From the sequence record NC_049852.1: DNA of 51,643 bases. The stretch is one strand, 5' to 3'. The stretch comes from Escherichia phage egaa. How positions within the stretch are numbered: the stretch's first letter is position 1; every line of letters starts with the position of its first letter. Both the position numbers and the translations under genes were made by a program. The notes beneath the pieces are model-generated. The model did no database searches. It was not told the DNA's origin and was given only the letters and a program-made list of their open reading frames with translations. Shown piece by piece: positions 3,080-24,024 of this stretch.

Positions 3080-3109
3080 TACCACACCAAATATAATGAG
3101 GATTGCATA

Positions 3110-3337: not shown

Positions 3338-3346
3338 TTAATAAAC

Positions 3347-3370: not shown

Positions 3371-3383
3371 AAAGGTGATAATA

Positions 3384-3718: not shown

Positions 3719-3727
3719 GGTGATGAA

Positions 3728-4478: not shown

Positions 4479-4509
4479 CACTTCACCGAAACGAAAGGAG
4501 AAATAAACG

Positions 4510-4896: not shown

Positions 4897-5114
4897 TCAA
4901 GGCTGAATATCGCTATAAGGTGACTCATTCAGCAACAAAAACCTTCAAGCATGGCGATATAGTCAGGCCAATAAAGAAAACGATGGTTGGATGGCTGATT
5001 GGTCTTTCTTACCACAAATCACTTTATTTTGATTTTGCTGATTCCGTAACCGCGCATTGCCATAGCGCAAGGGAACCAGAAAAAATCTTAGTTAGCATAG
5101 AGCGGATCAAATAG
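4893..5114 (+). CDS. hypothetical early protein (73 aa, GTG start overlapping upstream TGA)
   Basis: ORF track; GTGA overlap; TAG stop inside next element. Confidence 0.5.
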   Translation: MIKAEYRYKVTHSATKTFKHGDIVRPIKKTMVGWLIGLSYHKSLYFDFADSVTAHCHSAREPEKILVSIERIK

Positions 5115-5154
5115 CATTTTTTGTTAAATGCGGGTAGCATTGGTGCGGTATTAT
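5109..5154 (+). promoter_or_regulatory. element variant AATAGCATTTTTTGTTAAAT + 22-nt spacer + TATTAT
   Basis: 5109-5128; hairpin gcggtattattgccgc overlaps -10. Confidence 0.55.
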
Positions 5155-5183
5155 TGCCGCATCAAAAAAAGGAGTTATCATCA

Positions 5184-6767: not shown

Positions 6768-6769
6768 TT

Positions 6770-7162
6770 ATGTTTCTTCTGGATCTGTATCGCTGGTGTG
6801 AGTCATTCGAATGGTTTACGCGTCAACATATAGCAAAATTTATCTTTCAGCATAGAGAATGTGAGCGGCTCGCAAGGGCCGCAGGATTTACGCCGAGAAT
6901 GTTTGCTACTGCCGTTTCAAAAGAGTTTTGCGCAAGAATGATGACCGCTGGTTATCTTGATGGAGTTGGTGGAAAGTTCTGGTGTAAGAAAGGATCCGCA
7001 AATCGCCCTTTCTCGTTTGAACTTTACAGCCTGGAAGGTATGCAAAACGAATGGGTTAGGGATGTTTTACGGATCGGAGAAATGAGCGATGAAGAACTGT
7101 TTACGTCAAATGCTAATAGACAAAATATTGAAGTTCTGCGCCGTAAGTTCAATCTCACATGA
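6770..7162 (+). CDS. hypothetical early protein (130 aa)
   Basis: ORF track; start 3 nt after upstream stop. Confidence 0.6.
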   Translation: MFLLDLYRWCESFEWFTRQHIAKFIFQHRECERLARAAGFTPRMFATAVSKEFCARMMTAGYLDGVGGKFWCKKGSANRPFSFELYSLEGMQNEWVRDVLRIGEMSDEELFTSNANRQNIEVLRRKFNLT

Positions 7163-7283
7163 AGACTTCATGCACGCAATGTTAACGCTAATTCATTCTG
7201 ACATGCGAGCGTTTAACATATCAGAGCATAATTTGTGTGATGAGGACGGCGTTTTGTTGGTTACTGTAAAGCGTATCGAATAG
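7089..7283 (+). CDS. possible overlapping small ORF (64 aa) ending inside promoter element
   Basis: ORF track; overlaps 6770-7162 by 74 nt; GGAG 10 nt upstream; its TAG is the TAG of the next element; true start uncertain. Confidence 0.3.
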   Translation: MKNCLRQMLIDKILKFCAVSSISHEDFMHAMLTLIHSDMRAFNISEHNLCDEDGVLLVTVKRIE

Positions 7284-7323
7284 CACTTTTTGTTAAAACT
7301 CCCGATCTCGTATCGGGTATATT
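7279..7323 (+). promoter_or_regulatory. conserved 20-bp element + 22-nt spacer + TATATT
   Basis: aatagcactttttgttaaaa 7279-7298; hairpin cccgat-ctcgt-atcggg in spacer. Confidence 0.6.
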
Positions 7324-9958: not shown

Positions 9959-10057
9959 CAAAAAATTCTCCTTATCTCATTATGACAACGTATACAATAG
10001 AGATCGCCATCATAACAGGTAATGGCAAAAGTAACAAACGCCACATGATAATAATCC

Positions 10058-10300
10058 TCATTTGTAGTATTTGCGCGGCTCGCGAATTTTCGCCATAGCC
10101 TCTTTGACATCAATTTTTGTTGGTATTGCTGGTACGCGATGCATCTTGCGCGGGCGTTCATTGAGAAATGTCATTTTGTCGCCGCTGATAATGCTTATGT
10201 CAGCAATATCAAAATATTTCGCTATCCTGGATATGTCTTCTGCGATCCCGCATTCCTTTGCGTGATCCCATACAGCCTGCCTACCTTGTTCAACCTTCAT
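10058..10300 (-). CDS. hypothetical protein (80 aa)
   Basis: In-frame ATG (codon 8 of track ORF 10058-10321, whose start is TTG); GGAGG 14 nt upstream; overlaps stop of upstream small ORF. Confidence 0.55.
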   Translation of the reverse strand: MKVEQGRQAVWDHAKECGIAEDISRIAKYFDIADISIISGDKMTFLNERPRKMHRVPAIPTKIDVKEAMAKIREPRKYYK

Positions 10301-10469
10301 GCTTATAATATGCCTCCGCAAATGCTAATGGGTAGTGACCATATGCTACGCGAAGTAGAATCATTGCAGCACCCCAATCAAGATGCATATTGTTTTTCGT
10401 TCCGCCTTTTACCGCCTCGCGTGCGGTTTGTTGTGCCTGATCAAATGCTTTTTTGCTGTATACTACCAT
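10290..10469 (-). CDS. small hypothetical protein (59 aa), not in ORF track
   Basis: ATG 10469 with RBS GAGGAaataaaaATG, 58 nt downstream of promoter element; MVVYSKKAFDQAQQTAREAVKGG... Confidence 0.5.
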   Translation of the reverse strand: MVVYSKKAFDQAQQTAREAVKGGTKNNMHLDWGAAMILLRVAYGHYPLAFAEAYYKHEG

Positions 10470-10500
10470 TTTTATTTCCTCATGTTCGTTTCGATAAAAT

Positions 10501-10546
10501 AATTATGCCCGACACAAGGCCGGGCGTTTTAACAAAAAGTGCTATT
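10501..10546 (-). promoter_or_regulatory. conserved 20-bp element (minus orientation) + 23-nt spacer + ATAATT
   Basis: rc of 10527-10546 = aatagcactttttgttaaaa; contains TAG stop of 10542-10781; hairpin gcccggc-cttgtgt-cgggc in spacer; leader CGAAACGAA...GAGGA. Confidence 0.6.
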
Positions 10547-10781
10547 TTGACGCGGATTCGTAAAACTCTTGCAAGTCTTTACCGATCTGCTCATGCCATT
10601 TTTCAAGCGGTAGTTTTCTTGTTTCCTCAAAGCTCATGTCAAGCGCGCTTGTAAACTCCCACGGATCGCAACCTAATAGCGGTTTTATGAACTCGTTTTT
10701 ATCAAGCGCCTCGCAAACCATAGCGCGAAATAACAACCACTCTCCAGTTTCATTTAAATAAACGCTTCTTTCTTTCTGCAT
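10542..10781 (-). CDS. hypothetical protein (79 aa)
   Basis: In-frame ATG (codon 117 of track ORF 10542-11129) with RBS AAGCGGAGttaatatcATG; longer track ORF overlaps dam. Confidence 0.55.
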   Translation of the reverse strand: MQKERSVYLNETGEWLLFRAMVCEALDKNEFIKPLLGCDPWEFTSALDMSFEETRKLPLEKWHEQIGKDLQEFYESASK

Positions 10782-10785
10782 GATA

Positions 10786-11487
10786 TTAACTCCGCTTTCT
10801 TGCTCGACGCTCTGCCACCGAAGGGCAAATGTCGCTGATTTTAACGTATCGCGTTTTCTGCTGCTCACCTTCTTTAAGTTCTCGCATGATGAAAATAACG
10901 CTGCCTTTGTTGTTGCCCTGCACTGGTTTACCTGTAAGCGCGGAAGTAAACGCCAGGCGTCCGGTGCGGGAATATTCTGTTCCGTCCTCCTGGTAAACTT
11001 CTCCAGTGATCCAGATGATTTCCGCTGCGCGCTGTTGCGCTTCATAAAACCATCCTGTTGATGTGTCGCAAGGTAACAGTATGTCGATCTGGTTGTTGTG
11101 CTCCATTTGCTCAATCGCCTTCTTAACAAATGGAGTAATATTGCTGTACGGTGGATTAAGCCAGATATGCTTATTACTACCCCACCAACGCTTTAAGCAA
11201 TTTGTTTCCTTGCTGTAGAATTTTTCACATACAGCATTTTCTTTGCTCGCCGCCGCGTCGATGTCATAATCACCGTATTCGCTTTCCATCCATTCGACAA
11301 GCTCAGACGGAGTAGACCACAAATCGCGCACAATGTCCGGCGTATTGCTGCCGTTATAGCGGTTGCCAGTCACTTTGAAATATTGATTTGGTTTAACAGC
11401 CTGGTAATGACCACCAGTAGCAAGAGCATTGCCAATGAATGTTTCGCGTTCTATTTGTTCAAATGTCACTTCGGTTTCTTTGCTCAT
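10786..11487 (-). CDS. dam: DNA N6-adenine methyltransferase (phage Dam-like)
   Basis: NPPY catalytic motif (WLNPPYSNITPF) of amino-MTases; position next to nuclease/helicase as in T1-like phages. Confidence 0.8.
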   Translation of the reverse strand: MSKETEVTFEQIERETFIGNALATGGHYQAVKPNQYFKVTGNRYNGSNTPDIVRDLWSTPSELVEWMESEYGDYDIDAAASKENAVCEKFYSKETNCLKRWWGSNKHIWLNPPYSNITPFVKKAIEQMEHNNQIDILLPCDTSTGWFYEAQQRAAEIIWITGEVYQEDGTEYSRTGRLAFTSALTGKPVQGNNKGSVIFIMRELKEGEQQKTRYVKISDICPSVAERRARKRS

Positions 11488-11520
11488 TTCTTAATTACCT
11501 GTTGCTTGTTGAACTGGTGT

Positions 11521-11566
11521 TATTATGGCGCAATCCTTCGCGCCTGTTTTAACAAAAAGTGCTATT
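11521..11566 (-). promoter_or_regulatory. conserved 20-bp element (minus) + 23-nt spacer + ATAATA
   Basis: rc of 11547-11566 exact 20-mer incl. TAG stop of VRR-NUC gene; hairpin ggcgc-gaaggatt-gcgcc; ATG of dam 60 nt downstream. Confidence 0.6.
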
Positions 11567-11981
11567 TCATCATGTATTCTACAGCGATCATGAATTGCTT
11601 ATATCCGTATGTTACTGCGGCGAATCCGCCAAGCTCACGCACACGGCGTAAGAAGGCTTTTTGCTCCTTGCTGACTGGTGAAGCCTTACCCTTGCCAGAC
11701 TTATTGACGCGCTTCATCTCAATAGCTGCGAAAGGGTAGCGGCCTTTTAATCCAATCAGGATGATAAAATCACTTACTCCCTTAACGAGTCCGGCTTGCT
11801 GATCCATCATTGCGGTGGCGATCCCCTTGTCGCCCTCGTTTTTCGTATGCCATGCCAGCAATTCAGGATGAGCATAAGTTAACCATTGAAACCCCCCGAT
11901 CTGGTGCGATTCCTCTTTCAGCGTATCTGTCGGATCTCTTTCGTAAAACTCCAGATAATCGCCTTTATCAGTCATTGCCAT
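11562..11981 (-). CDS. VRR-NUC domain nuclease (PD-(D/E)XK fold)
   Basis: SDFIILIG ... AAIEMKR (D ... E-x-K) motif arrangement; adjacent to helicase. Confidence 0.6.
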   Translation of the reverse strand: MAMTDKGDYLEFYERDPTDTLKEESHQIGGFQWLTYAHPELLAWHTKNEGDKGIATAMMDQQAGLVKGVSDFIILIGLKGRYPFAAIEMKRVNKSGKGKASPVSKEQKAFLRRVRELGGFAAVTYGYKQFMIAVEYMMK

Positions 11982-14007
11982 AATTAAATTCCTTCTTGTA
12001 CAAATTATCTTCTCCCTTGCTAGTCTTGCGGTGAGTCACGCGCGATGGTGGCATGATGTGATTCACATATTGCATTATTTTTCGTGCATTACGATAGCTC
12101 GCCACCATGCCAGCAACGCGGCGATCTGGTATGTGCTTAAGAGCAACGCCTCGCCATTTTGCGCGGCAAATTTGGCTTTCAGATTCAGGGAAAAATATCT
12201 CTCTCGCCCTAAAAGTGTCTGCGCCATCGTAAAGCTCATAATTAAATATTATCCCTTTCTGGTTTTTCGTCATGTCAACAGAGAAAGATTGCACCTTGAA
12301 CCAGTCGTTTTTTGTGTAGTGCTTTCCGCTCAACTTCTCGTTAGGGTCAATCAATGACATGTCGCAATGTCTGCATACCCTGGCCGCAATATCATTTTTC
12401 GTTCCACAACCGCGCTGAATAATCTTTTTAGTGCGCGGGTCAATCTGATCATCACATGTCCTGAATTTAAAGAACCACTCGCATCTGTTGCCGTTTTCGT
12501 CTACGTGCATACAACGACGAGCATAATAGCTATTAAGAGTTCCGCAAACAGGACAAGGCTTCGGATCTTTACCGTTCCTGAATCGCTTCTGATGTTGCGC
12601 CTGTTCCAGTATCGGATCAAAATAAAGCTCACCTAACTCGTCCATCGTTCCTGAAAAATCCATAACCAGGTGATCATCTTTCTTGAAGCCTTGTTCCTTA
12701 TGCCATTTCTTAAGAAGTCGCATTCCGCGTCCTAAAAGCTGAATCAGCAAAGTTAGCGATCCAATCTTACGCAGAATAACAGACGTATCCCAAAACGGCA
12801 CGTTAACGCCAGTAGTTAGCGCCTGAACCTGGAAGATGTACTTTACCTTCCCTTCGTATGCTTCCCTCAACCACTCCTTGCGCTGGTTGTCGCCAGTCTT
12901 ACCAGTAATGATCCTGTAAGTCGTTCCAGGTGGCAATGCCGCCGCTGCCTCTTTGCAATGCCTTTCTCCTGCACATGTCACAAGTACGCCGTTACGGTTT
13001 TTACAGATCTCGTGAACTTTCGCCATGATGCGCTTTGTCATGGTCGCTTCTTCATGAATTTTTTGTTCCATCCTGCGAAGCGTTTTAGCGTCAAAGTCTG
13101 CGACGCCATCCTCGCTGGATGCCTCAAACTCTGAAAGGTCATACCCTAGATCGCCAACGTCGCCAAAATTTGTTGGCACAACAGAACCGAATTTGATCAG
13201 GTAGTTGGTGTCAATATTAGTAACCTGTTCACGCCAGAATCCTTTCTGTTTTTTGTCTTCTACCAGGATCGGGACTACTCCGCGAAACTCCGAACCAGTC
13301 ATACCAAAGATGCGCAGTTCATGACCATATGCTTTCCTGCAACGTCGCATCATTTCCATGATAATAACAGTGTATTGCGTGCGGCCTGTTCCCTCCATTG
13401 GTAAGCCATCCTCACCAATCATGAACTCTTCGCATTCGTTATCGCTCGTTATGTCATAATATGGATTTGGTACTTTTTCGCCTTTCTTCGTTGTCATTTG
13501 TAAAAATGATTCGTCTTTCTCTATTGCGTCGGCAAGGTCTTCCCAATCCACCTGGTGACATTCATCAATCCCGATAACGTGAGGAACATAGTCGCCAAGC
13601 GCTTTAAACAGTCCATTAACTACAGTTCCCTCAGAACCAACAACGATCGGAAAGTATGCGCTTTTTGTCTTCAGTCCTGCACAATAGATGGAGTTCGGCA
13701 CACCAAGATTTGTTATCTCTTCAGAATCCTGATCCACAATCTCAGCCTGGCGAGCAAGGACCATCATTTTCAAGCCCATTTTACGGCACTGGTGAGCAAC
13801 CATTGCAAACATCAATGTTTTGCCAGCCGATACGGACGCTTTAACAAAGAATGGGTGCTCATAATTTTTCATACGCTTTGCGATCTCAGCGTATGCAACG
13901 CACTGGTAAGGGTAAGGCACAATCTCGCCAACAGTGAATCGCTCCTGAATGGATTTAATTACCGCTTCACCAAGTGCTGATATTTGTTTTTCAATGTTTG
14001 GAATCAT
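11968..14007 (-). CDS. SF2 DEAD/DExH-box helicase with C-terminal zinc ribbon
   Basis: Walker A SVSAGKTLM, DECH box (GIDECHQV), C-terminal CPVCG...CRHCD; start moved to in-frame ATG 14007 (codon 23; aaAGGttttagaATG) because track start is TTG inside the promoter element. Confidence 0.8.
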   Translation of the reverse strand: MIPNIEKQISALGEAVIKSIQERFTVGEIVPYPYQCVAYAEIAKRMKNYEHPFFVKASVSAGKTLMFAMVAHQCRKMGLKMMVLARQAEIVDQDSEEITNLGVPNSIYCAGLKTKSAYFPIVVGSEGTVVNGLFKALGDYVPHVIGIDECHQVDWEDLADAIEKDESFLQMTTKKGEKVPNPYYDITSDNECEEFMIGEDGLPMEGTGRTQYTVIIMEMMRRCRKAYGHELRIFGMTGSEFRGVVPILVEDKKQKGFWREQVTNIDTNYLIKFGSVVPTNFGDVGDLGYDLSEFEASSEDGVADFDAKTLRRMEQKIHEEATMTKRIMAKVHEICKNRNGVLVTCAGERHCKEAAAALPPGTTYRIITGKTGDNQRKEWLREAYEGKVKYIFQVQALTTGVNVPFWDTSVILRKIGSLTLLIQLLGRGMRLLKKWHKEQGFKKDDHLVMDFSGTMDELGELYFDPILEQAQHQKRFRNGKDPKPCPVCGTLNSYYARRCMHVDENGNRCEWFFKFRTCDDQIDPRTKKIIQRGCGTKNDIAARVCRHCDMSLIDPNEKLSGKHYTKNDWFKVQSFSVDMTKNQKGIIFNYELYDGADTFRAREIFFPESESQICRAKWRGVALKHIPDRRVAGMVASYRNARKIMQYVNHIMPPSRVTHRKTSKGEDNLYKKEFNYGND

Positions 14008-14040
14008 TCTAAAACCTTTGAGTAATGCCATTTGGCGTGT

Positions 14041-14084
14041 ATAATACACAATCATTAAATCATCGTTTAACAAAAAATGCTATT
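14041..14084 (-). promoter_or_regulatory. element variant (minus) AATAGCATTTTTTGTTAAA + 21-nt spacer + TATTAT; overlaps a plus-strand TATAAT
   Basis: rc of 14066-14084; minus -10 TATTAT = rc of 14041-14046, plus TATAAT at 14039-14044: back-to-back divergent promoters for helicase and 14097 gene. Confidence 0.5.
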
Positions 14085-14096
14085 GGAGAATGAATA

Positions 14097-14570
14097 ATGA
14101 AAGAGCAACGAATCGCAGTATCAACAGGCAAGATTGACAAGCGCACAATTAATGGCAATAACGGAACAAGACGAGGCAAGGATAAGAAGAAGCGCAAGCG
14201 ACCGACAGGTTATTATGTTCTAAAAGATGAGGTGCGTGCCGGGCTAAAAGCGCGACTTGATATCCTTATTGAGTATTACGGAAGTGTATCAGCAATGGCA
14301 AAACGTCTTAACGTTAGCCAGCAAACTGTAAATCAGTGGCGCGTTCGCGGTATGATTTCAGCCGCTGGCGCTCAAAAGGTGCATAACGATTACAAAAAAT
14401 ATGGCTGCCAAGGCTATCGCGCGTCATTCTGCCGTCCAGATCTGCGATTTGATTCCAATGGTAAACCTCTCACAAAGAGATGTGATAAGCGTGAAATGTT
14501 GCGAGTGGTAAGAATGTCAGATTATGAACCTGGCGGATTCCTGTATAAACCTGAAAGCACTAATTGCTAA
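14097..14570 (+). CDS. HTH DNA-binding protein (XRE/Cro-like helix-turn-helix)
   Basis: SVSAMAKRLNVSQQTVNQWRVRGMIS helix-turn-helix; basic N-terminus; RBS GGAGaatgaataATG. Confidence 0.6.
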   Translation: MKEQRIAVSTGKIDKRTINGNNGTRRGKDKKKRKRPTGYYVLKDEVRAGLKARLDILIEYYGSVSAMAKRLNVSQQTVNQWRVRGMISAAGAQKVHNDYKKYGCQGYRASFCRPDLRFDSNGKPLTKRCDKREMLRVVRMSDYEPGGFLYKPESTNC

Positions 14571-14624
14571 AAACAATGCCTGGCATGATGTTATCATCTG
14601 TCAGGCTTTTTGTTTGAGGTGTAT

Positions 14625-15557
14625 ATGAATAACGAAAACTTTATGGTTTATCAAAAGGAAGATGTTCTCCCATATATGCAAGGATTGTGGCGTGAGGCGC
14701 TACAAAGTATTTGCGGTCTTCCAAATGAAGTTTTTAACGGCAAGCATCAATCTTGCCCCCACTGCGGCGGAAAGGATCGCTTCAGATGGACGGATAAACT
14801 TGGCGATAAAAAAGGCGATGGCGGTGCGATCTGCAACGTGTGCGGTAATGATACCGGAATTGGTTGGATCATGAAGCTAACCGGAGAACCTTACAGCGAA
14901 GTGATCAATATTTTGGGCCGTTTTCTTGGAAAAGTTCCGCAGGACTATAGAATAAAGGCAAATAAGCGAGTATCTCGTGATTCTGGTTATTCGTTTGGGA
15001 AACAGGCAAGCCATGAATGCTGCGAGCGCGTTATGTCAAAAACACTAAAATTTGATCGCACGCCGTTAAGCACATATGAAGGAATATACCCGCCTGAAGA
15101 TGGTCATTATGATTGCGGCGTAAAAGATGGTCGATACATTCACGCGTTACCATGTTACCTTGTGCATTCAGATGATATTGATGATGAAATGTGCAATGTG
15201 CTTTTCATTGATGAAGAAGGTAAACAGTCTTTTCTAGCAAAGGACTACACGCGCGGGTCGATTGTGAGAACAGGAAGCACAGATAAGACGATCTATCTTT
15301 GCGTTGACTGGATTGATGCGCAACATATTCACCTTGCAACTGGACAAGAGGTTTGGGCCTGTTTTGATGCAACTAACATTGAGATTGTGGCTTACAGGTA
15401 TAAAGGCAACAGAAGAATGCGAGTTGTCTGTAAGAGCACAGATCGTGACGCTATCATAGCTGCCGAGGAAAGAGGTCTTGAAATTATGATTCCGATTAAT
15501 GATAATTACAGGAAAGGGATAGAGAGGAAGGTTTACAAACCTGAATCTCTTCTCTAA
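14625..15557 (+). CDS. DNA primase (T7 gp4-like zinc ribbon)
   Basis: CPHCGGKDRFRW...CNVCGND zinc ribbon typical of phage primase N-termini; in-frame ATG at codon 6 with GAGGTG upstream (track start TTG). Confidence 0.7.
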   Translation: MNNENFMVYQKEDVLPYMQGLWREALQSICGLPNEVFNGKHQSCPHCGGKDRFRWTDKLGDKKGDGGAICNVCGNDTGIGWIMKLTGEPYSEVINILGRFLGKVPQDYRIKANKRVSRDSGYSFGKQASHECCERVMSKTLKFDRTPLSTYEGIYPPEDGHYDCGVKDGRYIHALPCYLVHSDDIDDEMCNVLFIDEEGKQSFLAKDYTRGSIVRTGSTDKTIYLCVDWIDAQHIHLATGQEVWACFDATNIEIVAYRYKGNRRMRVVCKSTDRDAIIAAEERGLEIMIPINDNYRKGIERKVYKPESLL

Positions 15558-15575
15558 ATGTCACTGCTACTTTTA

Positions 15576-15599
15576 CCCCGCATTGCGGGGTTTTTTTTT
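15576..15599 (+). terminator. intrinsic terminator after primase
   Basis: ccccgc-att-gcgggg followed by T9. Confidence 0.8.
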
Positions 15600-15656
15600 G
15601 CCTTAGCAAATGCTATTATCTGCATTGACATTAACATGCAACATGGGAGAAAACGC

Positions 15657-17984
15657 ATGGCAATTTACAGAACCGGACAGGCGTCAATGGACGCTCAAGG
15701 TTATATAACTGGATACGAAACGAAATGGCGAGAGCAACTAACGCTCATTCGCCCTGGTGCAACAATCTTTTTCATTGATGCACCATTTCAAGCGGCTGTG
15801 ATCAGTGAAGTTATCAGCGATACACAAATCCGCGCCATCACAACTGGCGGCGCTGAAATTGGGCGAAGCAACTACATTATTTTGCTGCATGACTCAATCA
15901 CTGTTGACGGCTTGGCGCAAGATGTTGCTGAAACGCTGCGTTACTATCAAAGTAAGGAAACGCAGATAGAGGAAGCAATTGAATTTTTCAAGAACTTTGA
16001 TCTGCAAAAGCTGATTGATTTACGTGATGAAACAGTGAGGAATGCAGTATCAGCCGCACAAAGCGAGCAAAACGCATTGCAGCAAGCAAACCGAGCCGAA
16101 ACGGAGGCTGACAGAGCGCATCAAGCGGTTGTAGGTTATCAGGGCTGGAAATACGAAAGAACTGTAAACGCTCCAGTGGGTGCGGAAGATGCAAAGTATT
16201 ACCCTGTGATCTTCCAAGAAAAAAACGTGGGTGATATGTCTCATTTAGGCGTTTTCTTCCAGATCTCAACTAGAAATATAACTGGTAATCATCCTTATAA
16301 TTCAGCGTCATTTGCTGGCTATGCTCGTACTTCTGGATGGAGTGACGGCGTTGATAGCGTTTATGGTAATTTCACTATCTATCAGAAAGATGAAAGAACT
16401 ATTGATTCTATTTTGATGCCAGCGAAAGCAACAGAAAAGGCGTTTGCAGTTTACATTCGCGGCGGCGCATTTCCTGTGAGAATTCACTGTGAAAGCAATA
16501 TTGATGTTGTTGTTCCAACATCAGATTATGCTCCAGATGGTTTTGTTGAAAACGCAACAGTGTTTAAGTTTGGCGCGACAGATCCGGGCGCTGAATGTAC
16601 AGAAGTAAGGGCAATGGTTTTAACTAACACAGGATTCTATGCGATTAATGATTATGTTATCCGCGATATTCTTTTGTTTAGGGATGGTCTTGGATTGGGT
16701 GAGAGACAAATACCAAGATTTTCCGATCTAGATCTTGTTCATCAATATTCTGGAGCTGATGAGCTTAGTGGGATCTTGAATTTACACGCAAAGGGTGATG
16801 ATGGTGTTTCTCGCGGTTATTCTCGCGTGTATGCTGAAAAGCAAACTGGATTATGGAAAACAACAATACATACAGCAAACAATGAAGGAGATAAACACGC
16901 ATACCTGCAATTTGATGAAGACTCAAATTTATCAGGTCTAAATTATGTTGAAATCAATGGGGCTGGTGGGCTTTACTCTAACGGGTGGATTACTGCAAAA
17001 CAGGCAATGCGAGTTGGCTGCGGAACTGCCGACGGAGGTAATAAAGATATTTACCTGACAAACGCAGCAGGAGATGGAGGCGCTTGGGGTTGGGTTAACC
17101 TCCTACAAGGTAACTGGCACAGTGGTTACTGGCAATTAGGTGCTGTAAGTGGTGATGCTGCAAATATAGCCCATACAAAACTACTGATTAATAATCAAGG
17201 GACTGACGCTAAAGAGTTTAGATTCCACAATGATTACGGCGGCTACGTGACGGCGCAACGTGGCTTTAATGGTCAGTGCATACAAGGCTCATGGGGGCTT
17301 GAATGGGATTTTATGGGTTCTCCTTTTCATGCCAACTCAGTACAAAACAATGATGGTGGTTGGAGTCCTATTGTTTCTGGTGGCTCTGTATCAACTGGCG
17401 GTTATTCTATGCGAGCTGGTTTTGGTGTGATATCAAACGGTAATGCCGCGTGGCCTGATGTAACGATAAAGTTAAATGGTGATGGTCGTTATCATCGCGC
17501 ATATAATTTTAGTTATTCTGGTAGCATTTATTCTTGGGGTAATGATCCGTGGGGTGGAAATTATGACTTCGCAAGAAATCCAACATCCGATCGTGATTTG
17601 AAACACGACATTAAGTATACAGACGGAAAGGAAAGCTACGATCGCGTAATGCAATGGTTGCCTGCCATGTTTAAATATAACGGATCTGATGTTCAACGTT
17701 TTGGCCTGATAGCTCAAGATCTGTTAAAAATCGATCCACAATATGTGAAACTCGTTCCAGGCTCACCGGTATTTGAGGATGTGATTGGAGTTGACGAAAA
17801 TGGTGAGGAATACATTGATCGTCAGATTGAAACTGACAGAAATGATGATACATTGGCGCTTGATAGCAACGTTATGCTAACTGATATGGCTTGCGCTATG
17901 GTTTACATGGGAGGAATGATCGAAAAACAGCAAAAGGAGATAGACGAATTAAAGGCGGCTGTTGCTGCACTGCTCAATAAATAA
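15657..17984 (+). CDS. side tail fiber protein with C-terminal intramolecular chaperone (peptidase S74-like) domain
   Basis: 775 aa from ATG with RBS GGGAGaaaacgcATG (track start lies within terminator); Gly-rich beta-rich body; C-terminal NPTSDRDLKHDIKYT...FGLIAQDLLKIDPQYVKL matches the S-D-x-x-L-K autoproteolytic chaperone signature. Confidence 0.7.
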   Translation: MAIYRTGQASMDAQGYITGYETKWREQLTLIRPGATIFFIDAPFQAAVISEVISDTQIRAITTGGAEIGRSNYIILLHDSITVDGLAQDVAETLRYYQSKETQIEEAIEFFKNFDLQKLIDLRDETVRNAVSAAQSEQNALQQANRAETEADRAHQAVVGYQGWKYERTVNAPVGAEDAKYYPVIFQEKNVGDMSHLGVFFQISTRNITGNHPYNSASFAGYARTSGWSDGVDSVYGNFTIYQKDERTIDSILMPAKATEKAFAVYIRGGAFPVRIHCESNIDVVVPTSDYAPDGFVENATVFKFGATDPGAECTEVRAMVLTNTGFYAINDYVIRDILLFRDGLGLGERQIPRFSDLDLVHQYSGADELSGILNLHAKGDDGVSRGYSRVYAEKQTGLWKTTIHTANNEGDKHAYLQFDEDSNLSGLNYVEINGAGGLYSNGWITAKQAMRVGCGTADGGNKDIYLTNAAGDGGAWGWVNLLQGNWHSGYWQLGAVSGDAANIAHTKLLINNQGTDAKEFRFHNDYGGYVTAQRGFNGQCIQGSWGLEWDFMGSPFHANSVQNNDGGWSPIVSGGSVSTGGYSMRAGFGVISNGNAAWPDVTIKLNGDGRYHRAYNFSYSGSIYSWGNDPWGGNYDFARNPTSDRDLKHDIKYTDGKESYDRVMQWLPAMFKYNGSDVQRFGLIAQDLLKIDPQYVKLVPGSPVFEDVIGVDENGEEYIDRQIETDRNDDTLALDSNVMLTDMACAMVYMGGMIEKQQKEIDELKAAVAALLNK

Positions 17985-18000
17985 CAATCTTTTTAACTCA

Positions 18001-18027
18001 AGCGCGGCTCCGGCTGCGCTTTTTTTC
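18001..18027 (+). terminator. intrinsic terminator after tail fiber gene
   Basis: agcgcggc-tccg-gctgcgct hairpin followed by T7. Confidence 0.65.
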
Positions 18028-18161
18028 GTCTTTATGCCAGTTGCTTACATATCGTTGACAAATGTTTTATATCTATTCCTGACAGTTAGGCGCATACTCT
18101 TTGTCGTAACATAAATGTTGCAAACTTTTTTTGTTTTTTTAACGTCAAAGAGGAATTTACT

Positions 18162-18863
18162 ATGTCAGATATGACTTTACTCCCTACTGGTGGTGGTTTT
18201 GGTGGCGAAGCTGGCGCGGCTGGTCTTGGTGGTGCTGTTGGCGGCCTGATTGGGTCATGGTTTGGTAACGGCTTTAATGGTCGTGGTGGTTATGGTGGTG
18301 ATGGTGCTGCTGTTGCTGTCGGTGCTAACGCTGTTCTTGATGGTATTAATAACATCCAGACAGGAGTAAACAACCTGGGGCTGCAAACTCTGCAAGGTCA
18401 AAACTCCACAAACCTTGCCGTTGAGCGCTCATCCGCATCAACCTTTAACGGAATTACCAGCCAGAATACGCAAAACCTGCTTGCATCGGTGCAAGGTTTC
18501 GCCGGACTGAATACCGCGATTGTTAGCGGTACTAACCAGACAGTTGCTGCGATTAATGCTGCTGATGTTAATGCTCTTGAGCGTTCCTATCAGGCACAGA
18601 TTGCAGCGGAGAGATGTTGCTGTGAGACTAACCTGAACATTGAGCGACAAGGTAACGCAACGCGAGATCTGATTCGTCAACAGTTCGCTGACTCTCAGGC
18701 TGTTCTGATTTGCGATATGAAAGCTCAGTTGCAGGAAGCGCGCTTTGCTCTTTCTCAGGCAAACCAGACCGCCGCACTGAATTGCAAAATCAACCAGGTG
18801 GAGCAATTGGTAAACTTCAAGTTGCCTACTCCTCAGACTCCGCCTACTGGCTGTTGCGGATGA
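18162..18863 (+). CDS. glycine-rich protein with Cys cluster (function unknown)
   Basis: N-terminus GGGFGGEAGAAGLGGAVGGLIGSWFGNGFNGRGGYGGDG; central CCCE and C-terminal PTGCCG; RBS aAGAGGAatttactATG. Confidence 0.65.
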   Translation: MSDMTLLPTGGGFGGEAGAAGLGGAVGGLIGSWFGNGFNGRGGYGGDGAAVAVGANAVLDGINNIQTGVNNLGLQTLQGQNSTNLAVERSSASTFNGITSQNTQNLLASVQGFAGLNTAIVSGTNQTVAAINAADVNALERSYQAQIAAERCCCETNLNIERQGNATRDLIRQQFADSQAVLICDMKAQLQEARFALSQANQTAALNCKINQVEQLVNFKLPTPQTPPTGCCG

Positions 18864-18912
18864 TAATAAATCAAGCGCCTTTCGGGGCGCTTTTCATCAA
18901 GAGGGCGAGACA

Positions 18913-19236
18913 ATGAAGATCCGTTATGCTGGCTATAAAATACCGCGCATTCATTTGCCGCGAGTTTCAATCGGGAGTGATGATCATGATGATGATTATG
19001 AGCGAGATAGCAAACATGATTCAGTTATGGGAAGTGTTATGGAAAGAACTAAGCACTATTCTAAGACCTGGGACGCGCACATTGACAAGCCAGGCGGCTT
19101 AATGTCGATTGTAGAAATGGAATACAAAGAGCTAATAACCGAAAAGGCAGACGGCTCGCATCATGGCATAGAGAAAGAATTAACCGATCTTGCCGCCGCT
19201 TGTATCTGCGCATTGCGTAAAATGAAATCAATGTAA
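18913..19236 (+). CDS. hypothetical protein (107 aa); C-terminal part weakly MazG-like
   Basis: ORF track; EMEYKELITEK...IEKELTDLAAACICAL resembles NTP-pyrophosphohydrolase helix pair (weak); start uncertain. Confidence 0.45.
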   Translation: MKIRYAGYKIPRIHLPRVSIGSDDHDDDYERDSKHDSVMGSVMERTKHYSKTWDAHIDKPGGLMSIVEMEYKELITEKADGSHHGIEKELTDLAAACICALRKMKSM

Positions 19237-19250
19237 AAAGGTTAACCGAT

Positions 19251-19742
19251 ATGCAAAACATTAATCAAAATGGCGCTGGCGTGACTCAATTCAACGGGAT
19301 GAGGCCGAAACAAATCATTGAGATTGGCGGCGTTAAATGGTCGTTACGGCGTGATGCTACTGATTCATCAATGGCGTTTCCTCACCAGAAAGTAAACTGG
19401 CTTAACGCTGGATGTGATCCGCTTGATGGCAACATTCATTATTGTTGGATAATGGGCGTAATTGCGCCAAATATGGGAACTCTTGAGCGTCCTGCTAATG
19501 TGATGTATATCGGTTTTCACCAACAGAGGATCATGATCGCACCAAATAGCGTTACTGTTGCAGATCTAGACAGGATGCATGTTTATGTAAGCGATAGTTC
19601 AAATTTTGTTGGTGAGTTTGTAGGAAAGTTTTTAGGAATTGAACCTGAAAAGCCAGTAGCAGAAAGGGAATCAATTAGCCCGTGGCCTGTAATGCCAGAA
19701 CAGCAATCAACTCCTGAAGGAAAAGCAAATGACGAAAAGTGA
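19251..19742 (+). CDS. hypothetical protein (163 aa)
   Basis: ORF track. Confidence 0.6.
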   Translation: MQNINQNGAGVTQFNGMRPKQIIEIGGVKWSLRRDATDSSMAFPHQKVNWLNAGCDPLDGNIHYCWIMGVIAPNMGTLERPANVMYIGFHQQRIMIAPNSVTVADLDRMHVYVSDSSNFVGEFVGKFLGIEPEKPVAERESISPWPVMPEQQSTPEGKANDEK

Positions 19743-19986
19743 AGGAATTGATCGGGTAGTTAAAGACCTGTCAGAGAGAGCGCACACAATAGCTGATGAA
19801 GGTCACTCACCAATATCAATCATGAAATCGGCAATGTCAGATTTTAACGGGCTTGGAAGTATGAGCGGAATGTTGTCAATAATGACCACTGGAAAACTTA
19901 ACACTCATCAAACTGAACTTGCAAAGAGAATTGCTGTTAAGGTGATTGCCGTGCTTGGGATGGCTGAAAGTGAAAAAGGGGCGTAA
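19729..19986 (+). CDS. hypothetical protein (85 aa)
   Basis: ORF track; overlaps upstream gene end. Confidence 0.55.
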   Translation: MTKSEGIDRVVKDLSERAHTIADEGHSPISIMKSAMSDFNGLGSMSGMLSIMTTGKLNTHQTELAKRIAVKVIAVLGMAESEKGA

Positions 19987-19996
19987 TGCCCCTTTG
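19975..19996. terminator. bidirectional intrinsic terminator between convergent genes
   Basis: aaggggc-gtaat-gcccctt; T-run on minus side (tttttc); stop of 19729-19986 lies in the loop. Confidence 0.65.
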
Positions 19997-20000
19997 TTGA

Positions 20001-20453
20001 TCAGAAAGGAATGTCGTCGTCAAAGTCCATAGGAGGTTGATTGCTTTGTCTTGGCTGTTGCGGTTGTTGCGGTTGATTCTGTTGTTGTGGTTGGCCCCAT
20101 CCTCCTTGCGTTCGCTGCTGATATTGTTGCTGGCTTTCCCCGCGCTGACTGAAGATAAGATTTGCAAATCCTCCTGGCATTAAACTTGAATACATCTTTC
20201 CGTTATATTCGCGCGTTTCAATGCGCAGCGTGTCGCAAGATACAGAAATAACCTTGCCAACCTGGAATGCCTCATCATACCAAACCTTAAGACCTTCTGT
20301 TTTAGCATTAAAAAAGAAACTGTAGTTTGTATATTGCCAGTTTCCATCTTTATCTTTGTATCTCTCTGAAAGTTCAACTACATAAAGTGTGCTGCCGTTA
20401 GGCATTTGCTTTACTCGCGGCTCTTTTCGGATCTCACCAGTAATAATATGCAT
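20001..20453 (-). CDS. ssb: single-stranded DNA-binding protein
   Basis: OB-fold-like N-terminus, Gly/Gln-rich linker, acidic C-terminal tail DFDDDIPF identical to the E. coli SSB tip. Confidence 0.9.
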   Translation of the reverse strand: MHIITGEIRKEPRVKQMPNGSTLYVVELSERYKDKDGNWQYTNYSFFFNAKTEGLKVWYDEAFQVGKVISVSCDTLRIETREYNGKMYSSLMPGGFANLIFSQRGESQQQYQQRTQGGWGQPQQQNQPQQPQQPRQSNQPPMDFDDDIPF

Positions 20454-20469
20454 TATTTATTCTCCTGTA

Positions 20470-20494
20470 AGAAAGGGGCGCAAGCGCCCCATGT
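20470..20494 (-). terminator. hairpin (possible attenuator/terminator) between erf and ssb
   Basis: ggggcgc-aa-gcgcccc; weak T tract (tttctta) on minus strand directly before ssb RBS. Confidence 0.4.
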
Positions 20495-20497
20495 CAA

Positions 20498-21154
20498 TTA
20501 TTCAAAATCAGTGATACTTTGCGATTTTACTTGCTCGTCGTTTTTTGTGTCAACTTCTGGCGAGGCAAGATTTTGCTTTGGTTGCGCTGGATTAAATCCT
20601 CGTGCTTTGCCGATCTCAAGCTCTGCCTTGCGCTTCTCGTAATGCTCTTTAATTACCTGCTTGCTTGCCGGATCGCTTGCCTTCCATGCTGATTTAAGCA
20701 CTTCTTGCAATTCGTTTACGCTTTCGCATTTCTCAATGTCACGCTTCCAGTCGTTTGCAGATTTAACGGCAATCTGTGCGTCATCGTCTGCCTGGCTTAA
20801 GCCAAATGCTGCGGCGGCTGCATAACGACGCGCGTATGTGAATGCAGATCCGACACCTTGAGGATCGTTTTTAACGATTGGTAGCTCTGCGTAAAATTTC
20901 ACCCACTGACCGGAAACATGAAGAACGGTTGTCTCAACCTTGATGCGGTTAGGTTGTTCGCTTTCAATCATGTCCTGCATCAACATTAGCTCGTTATCAT
21001 TCAATGCCGGAGTGATTGCATCAAGAACTGCATCAAGCGTTGCGTAACGATTTTTAAGGTGAGTGTTTTGCTTGTCCTTTTTGACCTTCACAAACAAGCT
21101 GCGAGCCTTATGCAGCGCTGGTAAAACCTTGTCGAATTGCTCTGATAGTTTCAT
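20498..21154 (-). CDS. Erf-like single-strand annealing protein
   Basis: [13 protein letters not shown] ... [18 protein letters not shown] pattern as recalled for the ERF family; sits next to an exonuclease (recombination module). Confidence 0.7.
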
Positions 21155-21199
21155 GATTAATTCCCATAATTCATGGCGGCTTTCGCCGCCTTATTGCTG

Positions 21200-21481
21200 T
21201 TAATGCTTTGTTTCTTCTTTAGTGTGTAATTTAATCAGATTTTCCATCATGCGATCAGAAATTTCTTTTACCGCCTTGATTGCTTCCTCGTTGTCTTCGC
21301 TCATTGTTGCAACAAGTACGACGTTATCGACTGCATCCATTACCTTTCTGATGTACTGCATTTCTTCTTCGCCTGCTGTTGGGTCAAGCGGCGCTACAAA
21401 GTCACGAAGCAACGTAGCCATTCCAGTTGCAAAATTATTGATGTGAACTGCTACCGCTGATACTTGTTTATTGTTTTCCAT
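21200..21481 (-). CDS. hypothetical protein (93 aa)
   Basis: ORF track. Confidence 0.55.
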   Translation of the reverse strand: MENNKQVSAVAVHINNFATGMATLLRDFVAPLDPTAGEEEMQYIRKVMDAVDNVVLVATMSEDNEEAIKAVKEISDRMMENLIKLHTKEETKH

Positions 21482-21562
21482 ATTTATTTCCTCACGTTTA
21501 CTGTTAACTTGTGCGGTGAATTATAACACCGCATTTTTCATTTGTTTAGCTATTTGTGCTGT

Positions 21563-22624
21563 TTAAATAAGATATTGCTTAAACTGGCGGCGCACCCAAT
21601 CAGGAGTATCAAGACAAACCTCCGGCTCACCGTTTGAATACGAAGGCCAAACGTCATGTTGCTGGCACATGGCAAACTGGTTAATTACGCTCATGTACTG
21701 AATGCGCCCGATCTTCAATTGCTCGCTGTTCATGCGGAAAGCCAACGGCAAATAAGGCTCTTTCTTCTCTTGCGCTAACAGTCGCACAACTATAGGTCGC
21801 TTTTCTTCTGGATACGCTTTTCTGAATAAATCACATTGCAACGCCATTTTCAAATAATAGCCGTGATTGTAAGCCAGGCGCATAAACTCAGCCGGATTCG
21901 CGCTCATTGTAGTTTTGTAGTCTGTGATCACAATGGCCTCTGTATAAATAATATCGCGGCAAATCGGCTGGCCTTTTTCATCGTAACCATCAATCAGCGT
22001 TGCGGTGACGTTCTTTGTTACGTCAACGTGATCGCATCGCACTTTGACTTTTACGCCGTTAATTTCACCGAACAACGATAATTCACGCTGTGCCGTCTTG
22101 CTATTCATGCATGCGTTATGTTCCGGTATTGATTCCAGAACCTGGCGCATTGCCACGCACGAATCGTAATCTTTAGCCTCGATTAACTGAACCCCATCGG
22201 CCCTGGCCTGACTTTCTGCGATCATGTCGATTAACCACATGACGTTAAGGTCTTCTCCGCAGTCAACCATCATTTTTATAAGTTCGGGGTAAGTCTTTCC
22301 GGTTGTACCTTTCAGGCCAAATGATTTCAGCTTTGCAGCAAGCGCCGTTTGGCTGGTTATCAGATCCTTAAAGTCTTCTGGCGCTGGCGCACGGCGATAA
22401 GTTTTTTCGAAAAGCTCCTTGCTTTCAAAGTTGGTATGCGACTGCGTACCAAAAACTAGCGCCTTGCTCTTGTCGTCACGCGGCTTGAACTTCCACGCTG
22501 CCGGGCATGTGCTGTAAATCTCTGCCAGGCTTGAACCGCTAACATAATCAGCCGTCCACGCTTCTGGATCGTGATAAAGCTCGTTGCTCATTTCTTCGCT
22601 GGTGTACGCCATAAACTTATTCAT
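21563..22624 (-). CDS. RecE/YqaJ-like PD-(D/E)XK exonuclease
   Basis: YHDPEAWTADYVSGSSL N-terminal motif and E...VITDYKT (D-x-K) core; upstream of erf-like gene. Confidence 0.65.
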   Translation of the reverse strand: MNKFMAYTSEEMSNELYHDPEAWTADYVSGSSLAEIYSTCPAAWKFKPRDDKSKALVFGTQSHTNFESKELFEKTYRRAPAPEDFKDLITSQTALAAKLKSFGLKGTTGKTYPELIKMMVDCGEDLNVMWLIDMIAESQARADGVQLIEAKDYDSCVAMRQVLESIPEHNACMNSKTAQRELSLFGEINGVKVKVRCDHVDVTKNVTATLIDGYDEKGQPICRDIIYTEAIVITDYKTTMSANPAEFMRLAYNHGYYLKMALQCDLFRKAYPEEKRPIVVRLLAQEKKEPYLPLAFRMNSEQLKIGRIQYMSVINQFAMCQQHDVWPSYSNGEPEVCLDTPDWVRRQFKQYLI

Positions 22625-22779
22625 GATTTGCCCTCGTTTGTTGGTATGCCTGCATTTTAGCTATTTAATGCGTTTAGTCAACAGTTATTTTGTTTTTTCT
22701 GTTCTAACAACGTTCCAGACGAATCGGATAACAAAATTTACATGTAAGTGATTGATAAATATCTTTGTTGTCTTTTTGT

Positions 22780-22980
22780 TCTCTTGTTCCTCCATTTGCG
22801 CCGGATATAGATATATAGACACACACAAGCACTGACACATACACAACCACATAAAAATTACCAGACACACAAAATCACACAAAACATAGATAACAAGAAA
22901 AAACAAATATAAATATATATACTGCTAACTTATTGATTTATATATATGTATATATATTTATCTGTATTTATTACGCTCTA
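22780..22980. repeat. CA-rich G-depleted tract plus (TA)n-rich segment (second copy of element at 586-720)
   Basis: acacacaagcactgacacatacacaaccacataaaaa...tatatatatgtatatatattta; shares atacacaaccaca with 616-628. Confidence 0.6.
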
Positions 22981-23049
22981 TTGTTGCTCACTTTTTGCGC
23001 TAAATTTACGCCTCCGCAGATTTGAGAACGCAGGAAAACAAAAAGAACA

Positions 23050-23093
23050 GAATAGCACTTTTTGCTAAACGACCGCCGCAAGATCGTGTATAG
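23050..23093 (+). promoter_or_regulatory. element variant AATAGCACTTTTTGCTAAAC + 22-nt spacer + TATAGT
   Basis: 57 nt upstream of lipoprotein gene ATG. Confidence 0.55.
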
Positions 23094-23125
23094 TTGCAAC
23101 CAACAACAACTAAGGAGATACCAAG

Positions 23126-23353
23126 ATGAAAAAATTAATCGCCGTTTTGATTGCAGCCGCAACCCTGACTGGTTGCGCAAATATGCCTAAGCGTGAATGC
23201 ACGGCTATTTATGAAAATAGCGGTATGCAGTATTCAGTTGCTATTTTTGGAGTAAAACGAGTTGGCGACCGCACTCTTGTTAAGGCTGGCTATCCGTTTA
23301 ATTTTCAGTGGGTAAGTATTGATAACTTTAAAAACGCTGATTGCAGTATGTAA
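23126..23353 (+). CDS. Llp/Cor-like superinfection-exclusion lipoprotein (putative receptor blocker)
   Basis: Lipoprotein signal MKKLIAVLIAAATLTGC; mature part PKRECTAIYE...VKRVGDRTLV...C resembles, from memory, T5 Llp (FhuA-blocking); single plus gene with own promoter and terminator next to tail tip genes. Confidence 0.6.
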   Translation: MKKLIAVLIAAATLTGCANMPKRECTAIYENSGMQYSVAIFGVKRVGDRTLVKAGYPFNFQWVSIDNFKNADCSM

Positions 23354-23361
23354 ATAAAAAT

Positions 23362-23386
23362 AAAGGGGCGAAAGCCCCTTTTTCAT
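23362..23386. terminator. bidirectional intrinsic terminator
   Basis: aggggc-gaaa-gcccct followed by TTTT (plus) and preceded by A-run (minus). Confidence 0.65.
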
Positions 23387-24024
23387 TGGTCGTAAATATC
23401 AGTCCTTATTGCAATTATTGAATTTCCGTTATTTGTTATAGATCCTGTTCCTGGCGTTGTCCTTGCTGCACCTATCCTTGTGCTTGAACCATCATACCTG
23501 CATGATGTATATATGTCAGAAGCACCCATGCCTACAACCGCACCAAGCCTTGAAGGGCAAACGGCATAAGAACCAGATAACGTTTGATCTATATTCGTTC
23601 CACCTGAAGAACCAGGAGTACCAATTGTAACAAGATCTGTTAGTACCCTGCTTTCATTAGTTAAAACCAACTTGCCGCTTGCATCCCATATAGCCATACC
23701 ATATTTCGGTAGATTTTGAGGGAAGATGGCAAATATATAAACAGTCATTGTAAATGATTGCCCGTATGGATTGCCTCCGTTTACATAAATGTTGCCACCA
23801 TTCCTGTAAGCTATTAATGCAGTTGGCTGCTGTGTGTTTGTTGTTTTTATAAATGCCATACATGGATAAGATTGATTTAATGGTATATTTGCGCTTGCGC
23901 TATGATAGGCAGAAGTGCCAGAAGATGAATAAGTGTACTTGCCATATAAGCAAAATGGCGTTGATTTTGGTGTGATAAATGGATTACCATTTGATAAAGA
24001 TAACATTGCTCCATATTCAGCCAT
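23383..24024 (-). CDS. tail-distal protein encoded downstream of J (candidate receptor-binding module), paralog of 24026-24331
   Basis: In-frame ATG (codon 9 of track ORF) MAEYGAMLSLSNGNPF; internal repeat MAIWDASGK; Gly/Ser/Thr-rich. Confidence 0.5.
   Translation of the reverse strand: MAEYGAMLSLSNGNPFITPKSTPFCLYGKYTYSSSGTSAYHSASANIPLNQSYPCMAFIKTTNTQQPTALIAYRNGGNIYVNGGNPYGQSFTMTVYIFAIFPQNLPKYGMAIWDASGKLVLTNESRVLTDLVTIGTPGSSGGTNIDQTLSGSYAVCPSRLGAVVGMGASDIYTSCRYDGSSTRIGAARTTPGTGSITNNGNSIIAIRTDIYDQ

Follow-up and report, generated by a model that had tools for sequence, protein, structure and literature searches.

A 21-nucleotide (nt) direct repeat, aaATAGCACnnnTTGnTAAAA, was described in 2024 for phage TLS and occurs also in T1, Rtp and Rogue1, its function being left open between a stoperator, an enhancer and an UP-like element (PMC11447400). 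In T1, the regulator Pir (Orf23) activates reporters of the hol and dam promoters and represses its own promoter and recE (PMC6737242), and the phage can persist as an extrachromosomal prophage. Here we analysed Escherichia phage egaa (NC_049852.1; the window is the whole stretch of 51,643 nt), in which the repeat is found as a 20-mer, AATAGCACTTTTTGTTAAAA, followed at a fixed distance by a -10-like hexamer. We conclude that the element and the spaced -10 very probably make up a promoter cassette, and that about 22 such cassettes probably switch on most of the early and DNA-metabolism genes of egaa. As to how they work, we lean towards an activator-dependent, -35-less promoter of the extended -10 type with Pir as its likely reader. 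The repeat is already known from related phages, and egaa is another genome that carries it; the published description (PMC11447400) is here extended by the link to Pir and by several features of the sequence, namely a -10 at constant distance, G at -14, a dyad, stop codons within the motif and the registers of the hairpin. The anatomy, spacing, conservation and indel junctions reported below come from our own comparisons and the effects of Pir on T1 dam and pir from the literature; from these we infer where transcription starts, that Pir binds the 20-mer, how activation works and what the hairpins do.

Bases 10001-24000 of the window are ∼94-96% identical to the Hanrivervirus phages SFP17, vojen, G29-2 and damhaus, and by this sequence relationship the window is a T1-like siphovirus of the Drexlerviridae, Hanrivervirus-like. 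Its gene order follows that of T1 and TLS, so that the repeat lies here in the same kind of host genome, a T1-like phage, as in TLS.

Distribution and anatomy of the cassette

The whole window was searched with the 20-mer at up to three mismatches and with a relaxed core, ATAGCACNNNTTGNTAAA, at up to two mismatches. The 20-mer gave 15 copies where 0.03 were expected, a number reached by none of 100 shuffles, and the relaxed core gave 22. In most cases a gene lies ahead of the copy, with its start codon 54-62 nt past the 20-mer and in one case 80 nt past it. An earlier, sequence-only reading had named four copies between 10501 and 23093, with the same spacing to a -10-like hexamer and to the start codon. 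All four are present (Table 1), the last two shifted by one base from where it had placed them, at 19, 19, 18 and 18 nt from their hexamers (CATAAT, CATAAT, TATTAT and TATAGT) and at 57, 59, 57 and 55 nt from their start codons. Two variant copies in the same interval, 14553-14572(+) and 21544-21563(-), had been overlooked; together, the copies of this interval precede a 59-amino-acid (aa) open reading frame (ORF), dam, the helicase, the primase, a 93-aa ORF and cor. That the cassette is a genome-wide module was borne out by the spread of the 22 copies and by an architecture kept across genera. The same reading had the element drive these genes: its account of architecture and spread stands, the element would probably drive genes, and, as the copies at 33718(+) and 37478(+) face no gene, this would not be all that it does.

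The spacing to the -10 is the most regular property of the cassette. In egaa, a -10-like hexamer begins 19-20 nt past the core in 20 of 22 copies (background 0.022 per position; binomial tail 1e-25). When copies from egaa, T1, TLS and Klebsiella phage NJR15, which represent four genera, were pooled, 62 of 81 had the hexamer exactly 20 nt past the core and 8 more had it at 19 nt, and in IMG/VR the distance was exactly 20 nt in 464 of 529 distinct cassettes. Flanking positions were counted in 515 distinct cassettes of related phages, the majority taken from IMG/VR contigs of T1-like size. This set had been preselected: each cassette has, at the fixed distance, a -10-like hexamer that contains A2 and T6 and matches in at least 4 of 6 bases. 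Within this preselected set, G at -14 was present in 456 cassettes (89%), T at -15 in 208 and a full TG at -15/-14 in 201. The predicted +1 is A in 451 (88%), preceded by C at -1 in 397 (77%), and the best match to a -35 is 3 of 6 or fewer in 498 (97%).

The core itself has the structure of a two-fold site. Across 62 copies, A3, G4, C5, A6, G13 and A17 never vary and A16 hardly does. The central triplet is free (TTT, GAA, TAA, AAA) between invariant reverse-complementary arms, which is the pattern expected for the site of a dimeric helix-turn-helix (HTH) protein. The 18-bp site reads ATAGCAC-N3-TTG-N-TAAA, and its inverted repeat, TAGCA-N5-TG(C/T)TA, comprises core positions 2-6 and 12-16. The dyad has its centre 30 bp before the first base of the hexamer. 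Relative to the predicted start site, this is about -42, and the 20-mer covers about -50 to -33. If that start is correct, the site is centred near -41.5 in place of a -35, as in class II promoters.

Between the core and the predicted start there is usually a stem-loop of variable sequence, with z below -2 in 49 of 72 cassettes (mean z -2.7) and with perfect stems of at least 5 bp in 342 of 515. It takes two registers. In one, the stem-loop fills the spacer and the T-rich -10 forms its tail, and several stem-loops of this kind are annotated as terminators in the T1 record; in the other, the -10 lies inside the loop and the 3′ arm ends at -1. About 150 of the 515 cassettes have the -10 in the loop and the 3′ arm followed by CATCGAAACGA, with no U-tract. 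The central triplet goes together with position 14 and with the hairpin register, so that cassette sub-lineages exist.

The upstream edge of the cassette is often fused to the preceding gene. In 10 of the 22 egaa copies that gene ends in the TAG of the motif (aATAGcac), and in 2 it ends in the TAA near the 3′ end of the motif; stop codons are embedded in this way at 2384, 4434, 5110, 7279, 10527, 11547, 41736, 47267 and 48569, among others. An upstream stop codon lies at most 3 nt 5′ of the motif in 5 of 22. Stop codons embedded in the motif are also found in TLS.

Several known signals were compared with the element and rejected. TTGNTA is not a -35, since it lies 22 bp from the -10 and no -10 is found 17 bp past it, and TGcTAAAAc within the motif is not an extended -10, as the T at -7 is missing in nearly all copies. 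Sigma-54 promoters have the consensus TGGCAC-N5-TTGCW, in which a helical turn separates GG from GC, and they have no -10; in TAGCAC-N3-TTGC the GG is AG, the spacer is 2 nt shorter and a fixed -10 is present. UP elements have A/T tracts at -57 to -38 and no specific G/C positions, whereas here G4, C5 and G13 never change and the A-tract is found further down, at about -35 to -32. Compared by eye with their consensus sequences, CRP, IHF and Fis sites and the T4 MotA-box fit in neither sequence nor spacing.

Pir as candidate reader and the pir/helicase region

We propose that T1-like phages set between their genes a compact intergenic unit of about 80 bp, which would consist, in order, of an upstream stop codon, the 18-bp dyad site, a G+C-rich stem-loop, the -10, a C-A start, and a ribosome-binding site (RBS) with the start codon. 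The -10 would be of the extended type, with G at -14 and no -35, and a short conserved leader, ATCGAAACGA, would follow the C-A start. Host sigma-70 RNA polymerase would start about 7 nt past the hexamer, and a dimeric sequence-specific protein bound at about -42 would stand in for the missing -35 contact, by class II activation. RNA that reads through from upstream is probably attenuated or terminated at the stem-loops, or stabilised or processed there.

The most likely candidate for the dimeric protein is Pir, whose gene would be read from one of the few canonical sigma-70 promoters. Only four such promoters lie at intergenic positions in egaa, before a gp01-like gene, pir, ssb and recE; in TLS, only three sigma-70-like promoters were reported, including those of recE and the regulator gene (PMC11447400). 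The first of the four in egaa, at 406-467(-), reads TTGACA-18-GATAAT with an RBS and an ATG near 406, its gene running off the left end; its counterpart in TLS is P01/gp01, and the minus-strand early arm starts from it.

A structure model of Pir (predicted local distance difference test score 86) has as its best matches the all-helical Cro proteins, dimeric binders of pseudo-palindromic operators. The T1 fragments of dam and pir, of up to 150 bp, both contain the element. That the element acts as a promoter, as had been proposed, receives support from the T1 ortholog of dam, where the fragment that carries it drives green fluorescent protein and responds to Pir; the 20-mer alone is no promoter. 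The second T1 regulator, Orf65, was rejected as reader because it has no homologue in the egaa window. Homologues of Pir were found in 841 phage records, apparently all T1-like. We regard Pir (14097-14570), an HTH protein that the sequence-only reading had put forward for a test of binding, as the best current candidate for the reader of the 20-mer, on evidence from which binding and its absence appear about equally probable.

About 20 records named as Campylobacter phages (e.g. A15a, 22.7 kb) carry a Pir identical to that of egaa, and are apparently sequences of T1-like coliphages that were filed with Campylobacter as host.

The region between pir and the divergent helicase gene shows how one site could serve both genes. 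The near-palindrome tgtataataca, which the sequence-only reading had described as holding overlapping divergent -10s, is present at 14038-14048 with back-to-back promoters and is kept in six lineages. The TATAAT of the regulator and the TATTAT of the helicase use the same base pairs, and the 20-mer at 14065-14084(-) falls at about +13 to +32 of the predicted leader of the regulator gene. The only conserved blocks of the pir-helicase intergenic region in the six lineages are the pir -35, the shared -10 and the 20-mer, and because only these three are conserved, the 20-mer is the most economical operator for pir autorepression. With the site in the pir leader and the -10s overlapping, occupancy that favours the helicase promoter would shut off pir; autorepression would thus follow because occupancy of the helicase promoter would exclude pir transcription.

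Spread, gene exchange and neighbouring features

T1, TLS, Klebsiella phage NJR15, Vibrio phage Vc1 and one metagenomic lineage all retain the cassette, and a non-Drexlerviridae control phage had no copy of it. The exact 21-mer is nevertheless also present in Klebsiella phage KP15 (GU295964), a T4-like Slopekvirus of 174 kb. At 10000-10460 of KP15, near dexA, the orphan genes KP15_13A and KP15_13B follow two complete cassettes of the T1 type that lie next to each other, each with the 20-mer, a hairpin, a -10 and a leader, CATCGAAAC; both are annotated in the record as putative middle promoters. More than 130 records of T4-like phages have this segment at an identity of 95% or higher. Comparison of the orphan genes beside these cassettes with the T1-like phage loci analysed here gave no match.

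Cassettes also mark places at which close relatives differ. When five close relatives were aligned to both early arms, a cassette lay no more than 2 nt away from 12 of the 36 block ends (6.6% expected), although block ends are shared between relatives and favour gene boundaries anyway, so that the p-value overstates the case for junctions. Clean cassette-to-cassette indels are seen as well: egaa 1960-2383 is absent in damhaus, 2454-3094 is absent in vB_EcoP_06, and Henu8 has an extra gene between two copies of the egaa cassette at 50780-50860. The indels in these three relatives begin and end inside cassettes and leave a single hybrid cassette, which looks like repeat recombination that moves whole genes. 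The repeated cassettes would thus double as junctions for the exchange of gene modules.

The features on which these results rest are collected in Table 1. The copy with its core start at 41737(-) is degenerate and carries a terminator. The inverted copy at the capsid gene is also found in T1 and TLS and that at the tail gene also in T1, where the equivalent place holds the copy at 18832(-); a roadblock and a weak antisense promoter are among the possibilities for these inverted copies. The lipoprotein gene at 23126-23353 had been taken for Llp-like. Its product is instead Cor, a superinfection-exclusion lipoprotein, with a match to phrog_1119 (E 3e-28) and 56% identity to T1 Cor; Pfam detects only a lipoprotein signal in it, and similarity to T5 Llp was not found.

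Table 1. Cassette elements and associated genes in egaa, with positions in the window
Feature	Position	Strand	Remarks
20-mer AATAGCACTTTTTGTTAAAA	10527-10546	-	TAG is the stop codon of the upstream 80-aa ORF (10542-10784)
Spacer stem-loop GCCCGgccttgtgtCGGGC	10507-10525	-	T-rich tail runs into -10 CATAAT (10502-10507); flagged terminator-like
Predicted start A	10495	-	In leader ATCGAAACGA
59-aa ORF, phrog_2180 (function unknown)	10290-10469	-	Start codon 57 nt past the 20-mer
20-mer	11547-11566	-	TAG is the stop codon of the VRR-NUC gene (11562-11981)
Spacer stem-loop GGCGCgaaggattGCGCC, then -10 CATAAT (11522-11527)	11522-11544	-	Predicted start near 11515
dam	10786-11487	-	Pfam Dam, E 2e-60; start codon 59 nt past the 20-mer
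20-mer variant AATAGCATTTTTTGTTAAAC	14065-14084	-	Faces the helicase gene; 12 nt from the ATG of the divergent regulator gene
Superfamily 2 helicase gene	11968-14007	-	ATG at 14007, 57 nt past the 20-mer
Overlapping divergent promoters	14018-14046	+ and -	+: TTGAGT (14018-14023)-16-TATAAT (14040-14045), regulator gene; -: TATTAT (14046-14041), helicase
Pir homologue	14097-14570	+	60% identical to T1 Orf23/Pir; Cro-like HTH at residues 57-90; invariant basic N-terminal arm
20-mer variant GAAAGCACTAATTGCTAAAA	14553-14572	+	Contains the stop codon of the regulator gene (TAA, 14568-14570); precedes the primase
Predicted extended -10 TGTTATCAT, hexamer 14592-14597	14589-14627	+	Inside a terminator-like hairpin; primase ATG at 14625
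20-mer variant AACAGCACAAATAGCTAAAC	21544-21563	-	Begins 3 nt past the stop codon of the exonuclease VIII gene
-10 TATAAT (21520-21525)	21200-21525	-	In the loop of TGCGGTG...CACCGCA; then 93-aa ORF 21200-21481
20-mer variant AATAGCACTTTTTGCTAAAC	23051-23070	+	-10 TATAGT at 23089-23094, then cor (23126-23353)
Seven more 20-mers, early arm	Starts 1001, 1878, 2384, 3036, 4434, 5110, 7279 (1001-7298)	+	
Seven more cores	Starts 41737, 45922, 47268, 48570, 49787, 50842, 51305 (41736-51323)	-	
Inverted copy	33718-33737	+	Faces no gene; the minus-strand tail gene 33388-33705 has its ATG 12 nt away
Inverted copy	37478-37497	+	Just upstream of the minus-strand major capsid gene; crippled -10 without T at -7

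Between the divergent exonuclease VIII and cor genes, egaa 22700-23000 is AT-rich (28-34% G+C), with the short tandem repeats CACACAAAAT and ATTTATATAT and TA runs, and the equivalent region of T1 has repeated GTGTAACAG words. This region may be a replication origin or a regulatory region.

Alternative explanations and comparison with known systems

A number of observations weigh against a Pir-dependent promoter. Extended -10 promoters can work without an activator. Three kept copies, at the pir, capsid and tail genes, are placed where no forward gene could be driven. The recognition helix predicted for Pir (residues 75-84) is variable among homologues and very different in Vc1, yet the 20-mer motif is nearly invariant, Vc1 included. 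The most conserved part of Pir is instead the basic N-terminal segment DKRxxNGNNGTRRGxDKKxRK (residues 10-35), which is disordered and of low confidence in the model; the invariant residues are D14, R16, N19, G20, N21, N22, R26, D29 and R33. A comparison of Pir and motif for co-variation in the most divergent lineages found the motif essentially unchanged in Vc1, and the lineage with 46% identity offered four cassettes only, too small a number to compare. If KP15 has no Pir homologue and its cassettes are functional there, they act independently of Pir. The T1 reporters carried fragments of up to 150 bp upstream, within which the site of Pir was not mapped (PMC6737242), and a literature search for start-site or RNA-seq data on T1-like phages found none; a text search for the motif gave nothing useful either. 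Finally, the element is absent from the 150-bp fragments of T1 hol and recE, though Pir acts on both; the hol fragment has a half-site AATAGCA only, and recE has a canonical TTGACT-16-TATAAT. Nor was the element found in the regions upstream of the holin genes of egaa, TLS and NJR15.

A different motif, (T)CATCACCTTA, lies upstream of the holin gene beside a terminator hairpin, once in T1 (42761-42780) and twice in NJR15 (42640-42655 and 42708-42722), and may be a late-promoter or a Pir-related signal.

The main rival to activation by Pir is that the cassettes are constitutive early promoters read by the host polymerase alone, with the 20-mer as an unusual UP-like element or a contact for sigma or alpha. 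The frequent G at -14 (89% of cassettes) and the good -10 hexamers would suit such promoters, as would the complete cassettes in the T4-like KP15, and no other promoter serves most of the small, early-looking genes at the ends of the genome. A motif that is near-invariant in phages of Escherichia, Klebsiella and Vibrio also fits a conserved host reader better than it fits the variable helix of Pir, and an UP-like role was raised by the TLS authors (PMC11447400). However, the invariance of G4, C5 and G13 (A6 and A16 also, or nearly so) in the dyad arms contradicts recognition of A-tracts by the C-terminal domain of the alpha subunit under the usual UP rules, the A/T tracts lie some 6-10 bp nearer to the start than UP subsites, and TTGNTA, 22 bp from the -10, is too distant for the role of a -35. 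Some conserved copies, namely those in the pir leader and at the capsid and tail genes, lack a usable -10 or a forward gene and argue for a function independent of polymerase, and the T1 dam promoter does respond to Pir. We consider the host polymerase alone a rather unlikely explanation.

Two further explanations place the function of the 20-mer elsewhere, and to each we attach a small probability. The first makes the element mainly negative, a stoperator-like or operator site at which a phage repressor blocks elongating or initiating polymerase so that most genes stay silent in the carrier or lysogen-like state reported for T1. Stoperators were suggested by the TLS authors from the orientation bias along transcription (PMC11447400), Pir represses its own promoter, T1 can persist as an extrachromosomal prophage, and the copies in the pir, capsid and tail leaders could act only negatively. 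A roadblock would nonetheless have no need of the fixed 20-nt distance to the -10 seen in ∼88% of >500 cassettes, a site upstream of -33 would not block polymerase that starts downstream, and the dam promoter, which bears the element, is activated by Pir. The other explanation assigns the cassette mainly to RNA or recombination, as a signal for processing, stability or termination or as a recombination substrate, with the -10-like hexamer an incidental T-rich tail. The enrichment of stem-loops (z below -2 in 49 of 72), the annotation of several as rho-independent terminators in the T1 record, the indels between relatives that end in cassettes and the presence of cassettes in a T4-like phage are consistent with this. 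It is harder to reconcile with the ∼150 of 515 loop-type cassettes, which are not intrinsic terminators and yet keep TAnnnT, the G at -14 and the C-A start in place, or with a scan of the egaa window against Rfam, which gave no match; a tRNA scan of the window found nothing either. Recombination alone cannot explain base-by-base invariance across genera. Such a role is in any case compatible with promoter function as a second role and is not an alternative to it.

Pir-dependent activation can be extended, tentatively and with a probability clearly below even, to a reading in which the ∼20 cassettes form one Pir regulon that comprises nearly the whole early and middle programme and is turned on from sites at -42, the invariant N-terminal arm of Pir and not its variable HTH helix reads the DNA, and the cassette is a gene linker (stop codon, operator, attenuator, promoter and leader) by which orphan genes are shuffled. 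Under that extension, the linker cassette may even pass to T4-like phages unrelated to T1, KP15 among them. Laboratories often meet T1-like phages as contaminants, and phage therapy considers them as candidates, yet their transcription programme is essentially unmapped. If the promoter is indeed Pir-dependent, a single regulator with a single 18-bp site would account for the switching on of most non-structural genes and for how the switch between lysis and the carrier state in T1 spreads to the whole genome. The cassette would also offer a ready-made portable expression unit for phage engineering, and recombination at such junctions would account for the mosaic arms of T1-like genomes. What the analysis contributes is a precise anatomy and a testable mechanism for a previously unexplained repeat.

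Class II promoters are known from lambda cI at OR2/PRM (-42), CRP at galP1 (-41.5, with an extended -10) and Mu Mor at Pm. The egaa cassette shares with them a dyad ∼30 bp upstream of the -10, the lack of a -35, a -10 of putatively extended type and a candidate reader with an HTH of the Cro/cI type. It differs in having a putative activator, in a site that is asymmetric outside the 5-bp arms and has an added A-tract on the promoter side, and in being used ∼20 times per genome within a full gene-linker cassette.

The TLS repeat has the same sequence as the egaa element and is likewise oriented along transcription, with start codons ∼76 nt away in TLS and 74-82 nt away in egaa. The same central-triplet subgroups are present, and two egaa copies are inverted, like DR7 in TLS.

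The promoter-early stem-loop (PeSL) elements of T4-type phages (PMC2839356, PMC4122927) resemble the cassette in having a stable stem-loop, in being concentrated among small orphan genes and in lying at indel junctions between close relatives. They have consensus sigma-70 -35 and -10 hexamers, an AT-rich upstream region and a stem-loop outside the promoter, whereas the egaa cassette has no -35, a G/C-containing dyad site in its place and the stem-loop inside the promoter, in the spacer or around the -10. With the stoperators of mycobacteriophage L5, a comparison raised for the TLS repeat (PMC11447400), the element shares many short, asymmetric sites that lie along transcription and are scattered through the genome. 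L5 stoperators, however, have no fixed relation to a -10 and block elongation, whereas the egaa-type cassette keeps a fixed spacing to the -10, and one orthologous promoter of this type is activated.

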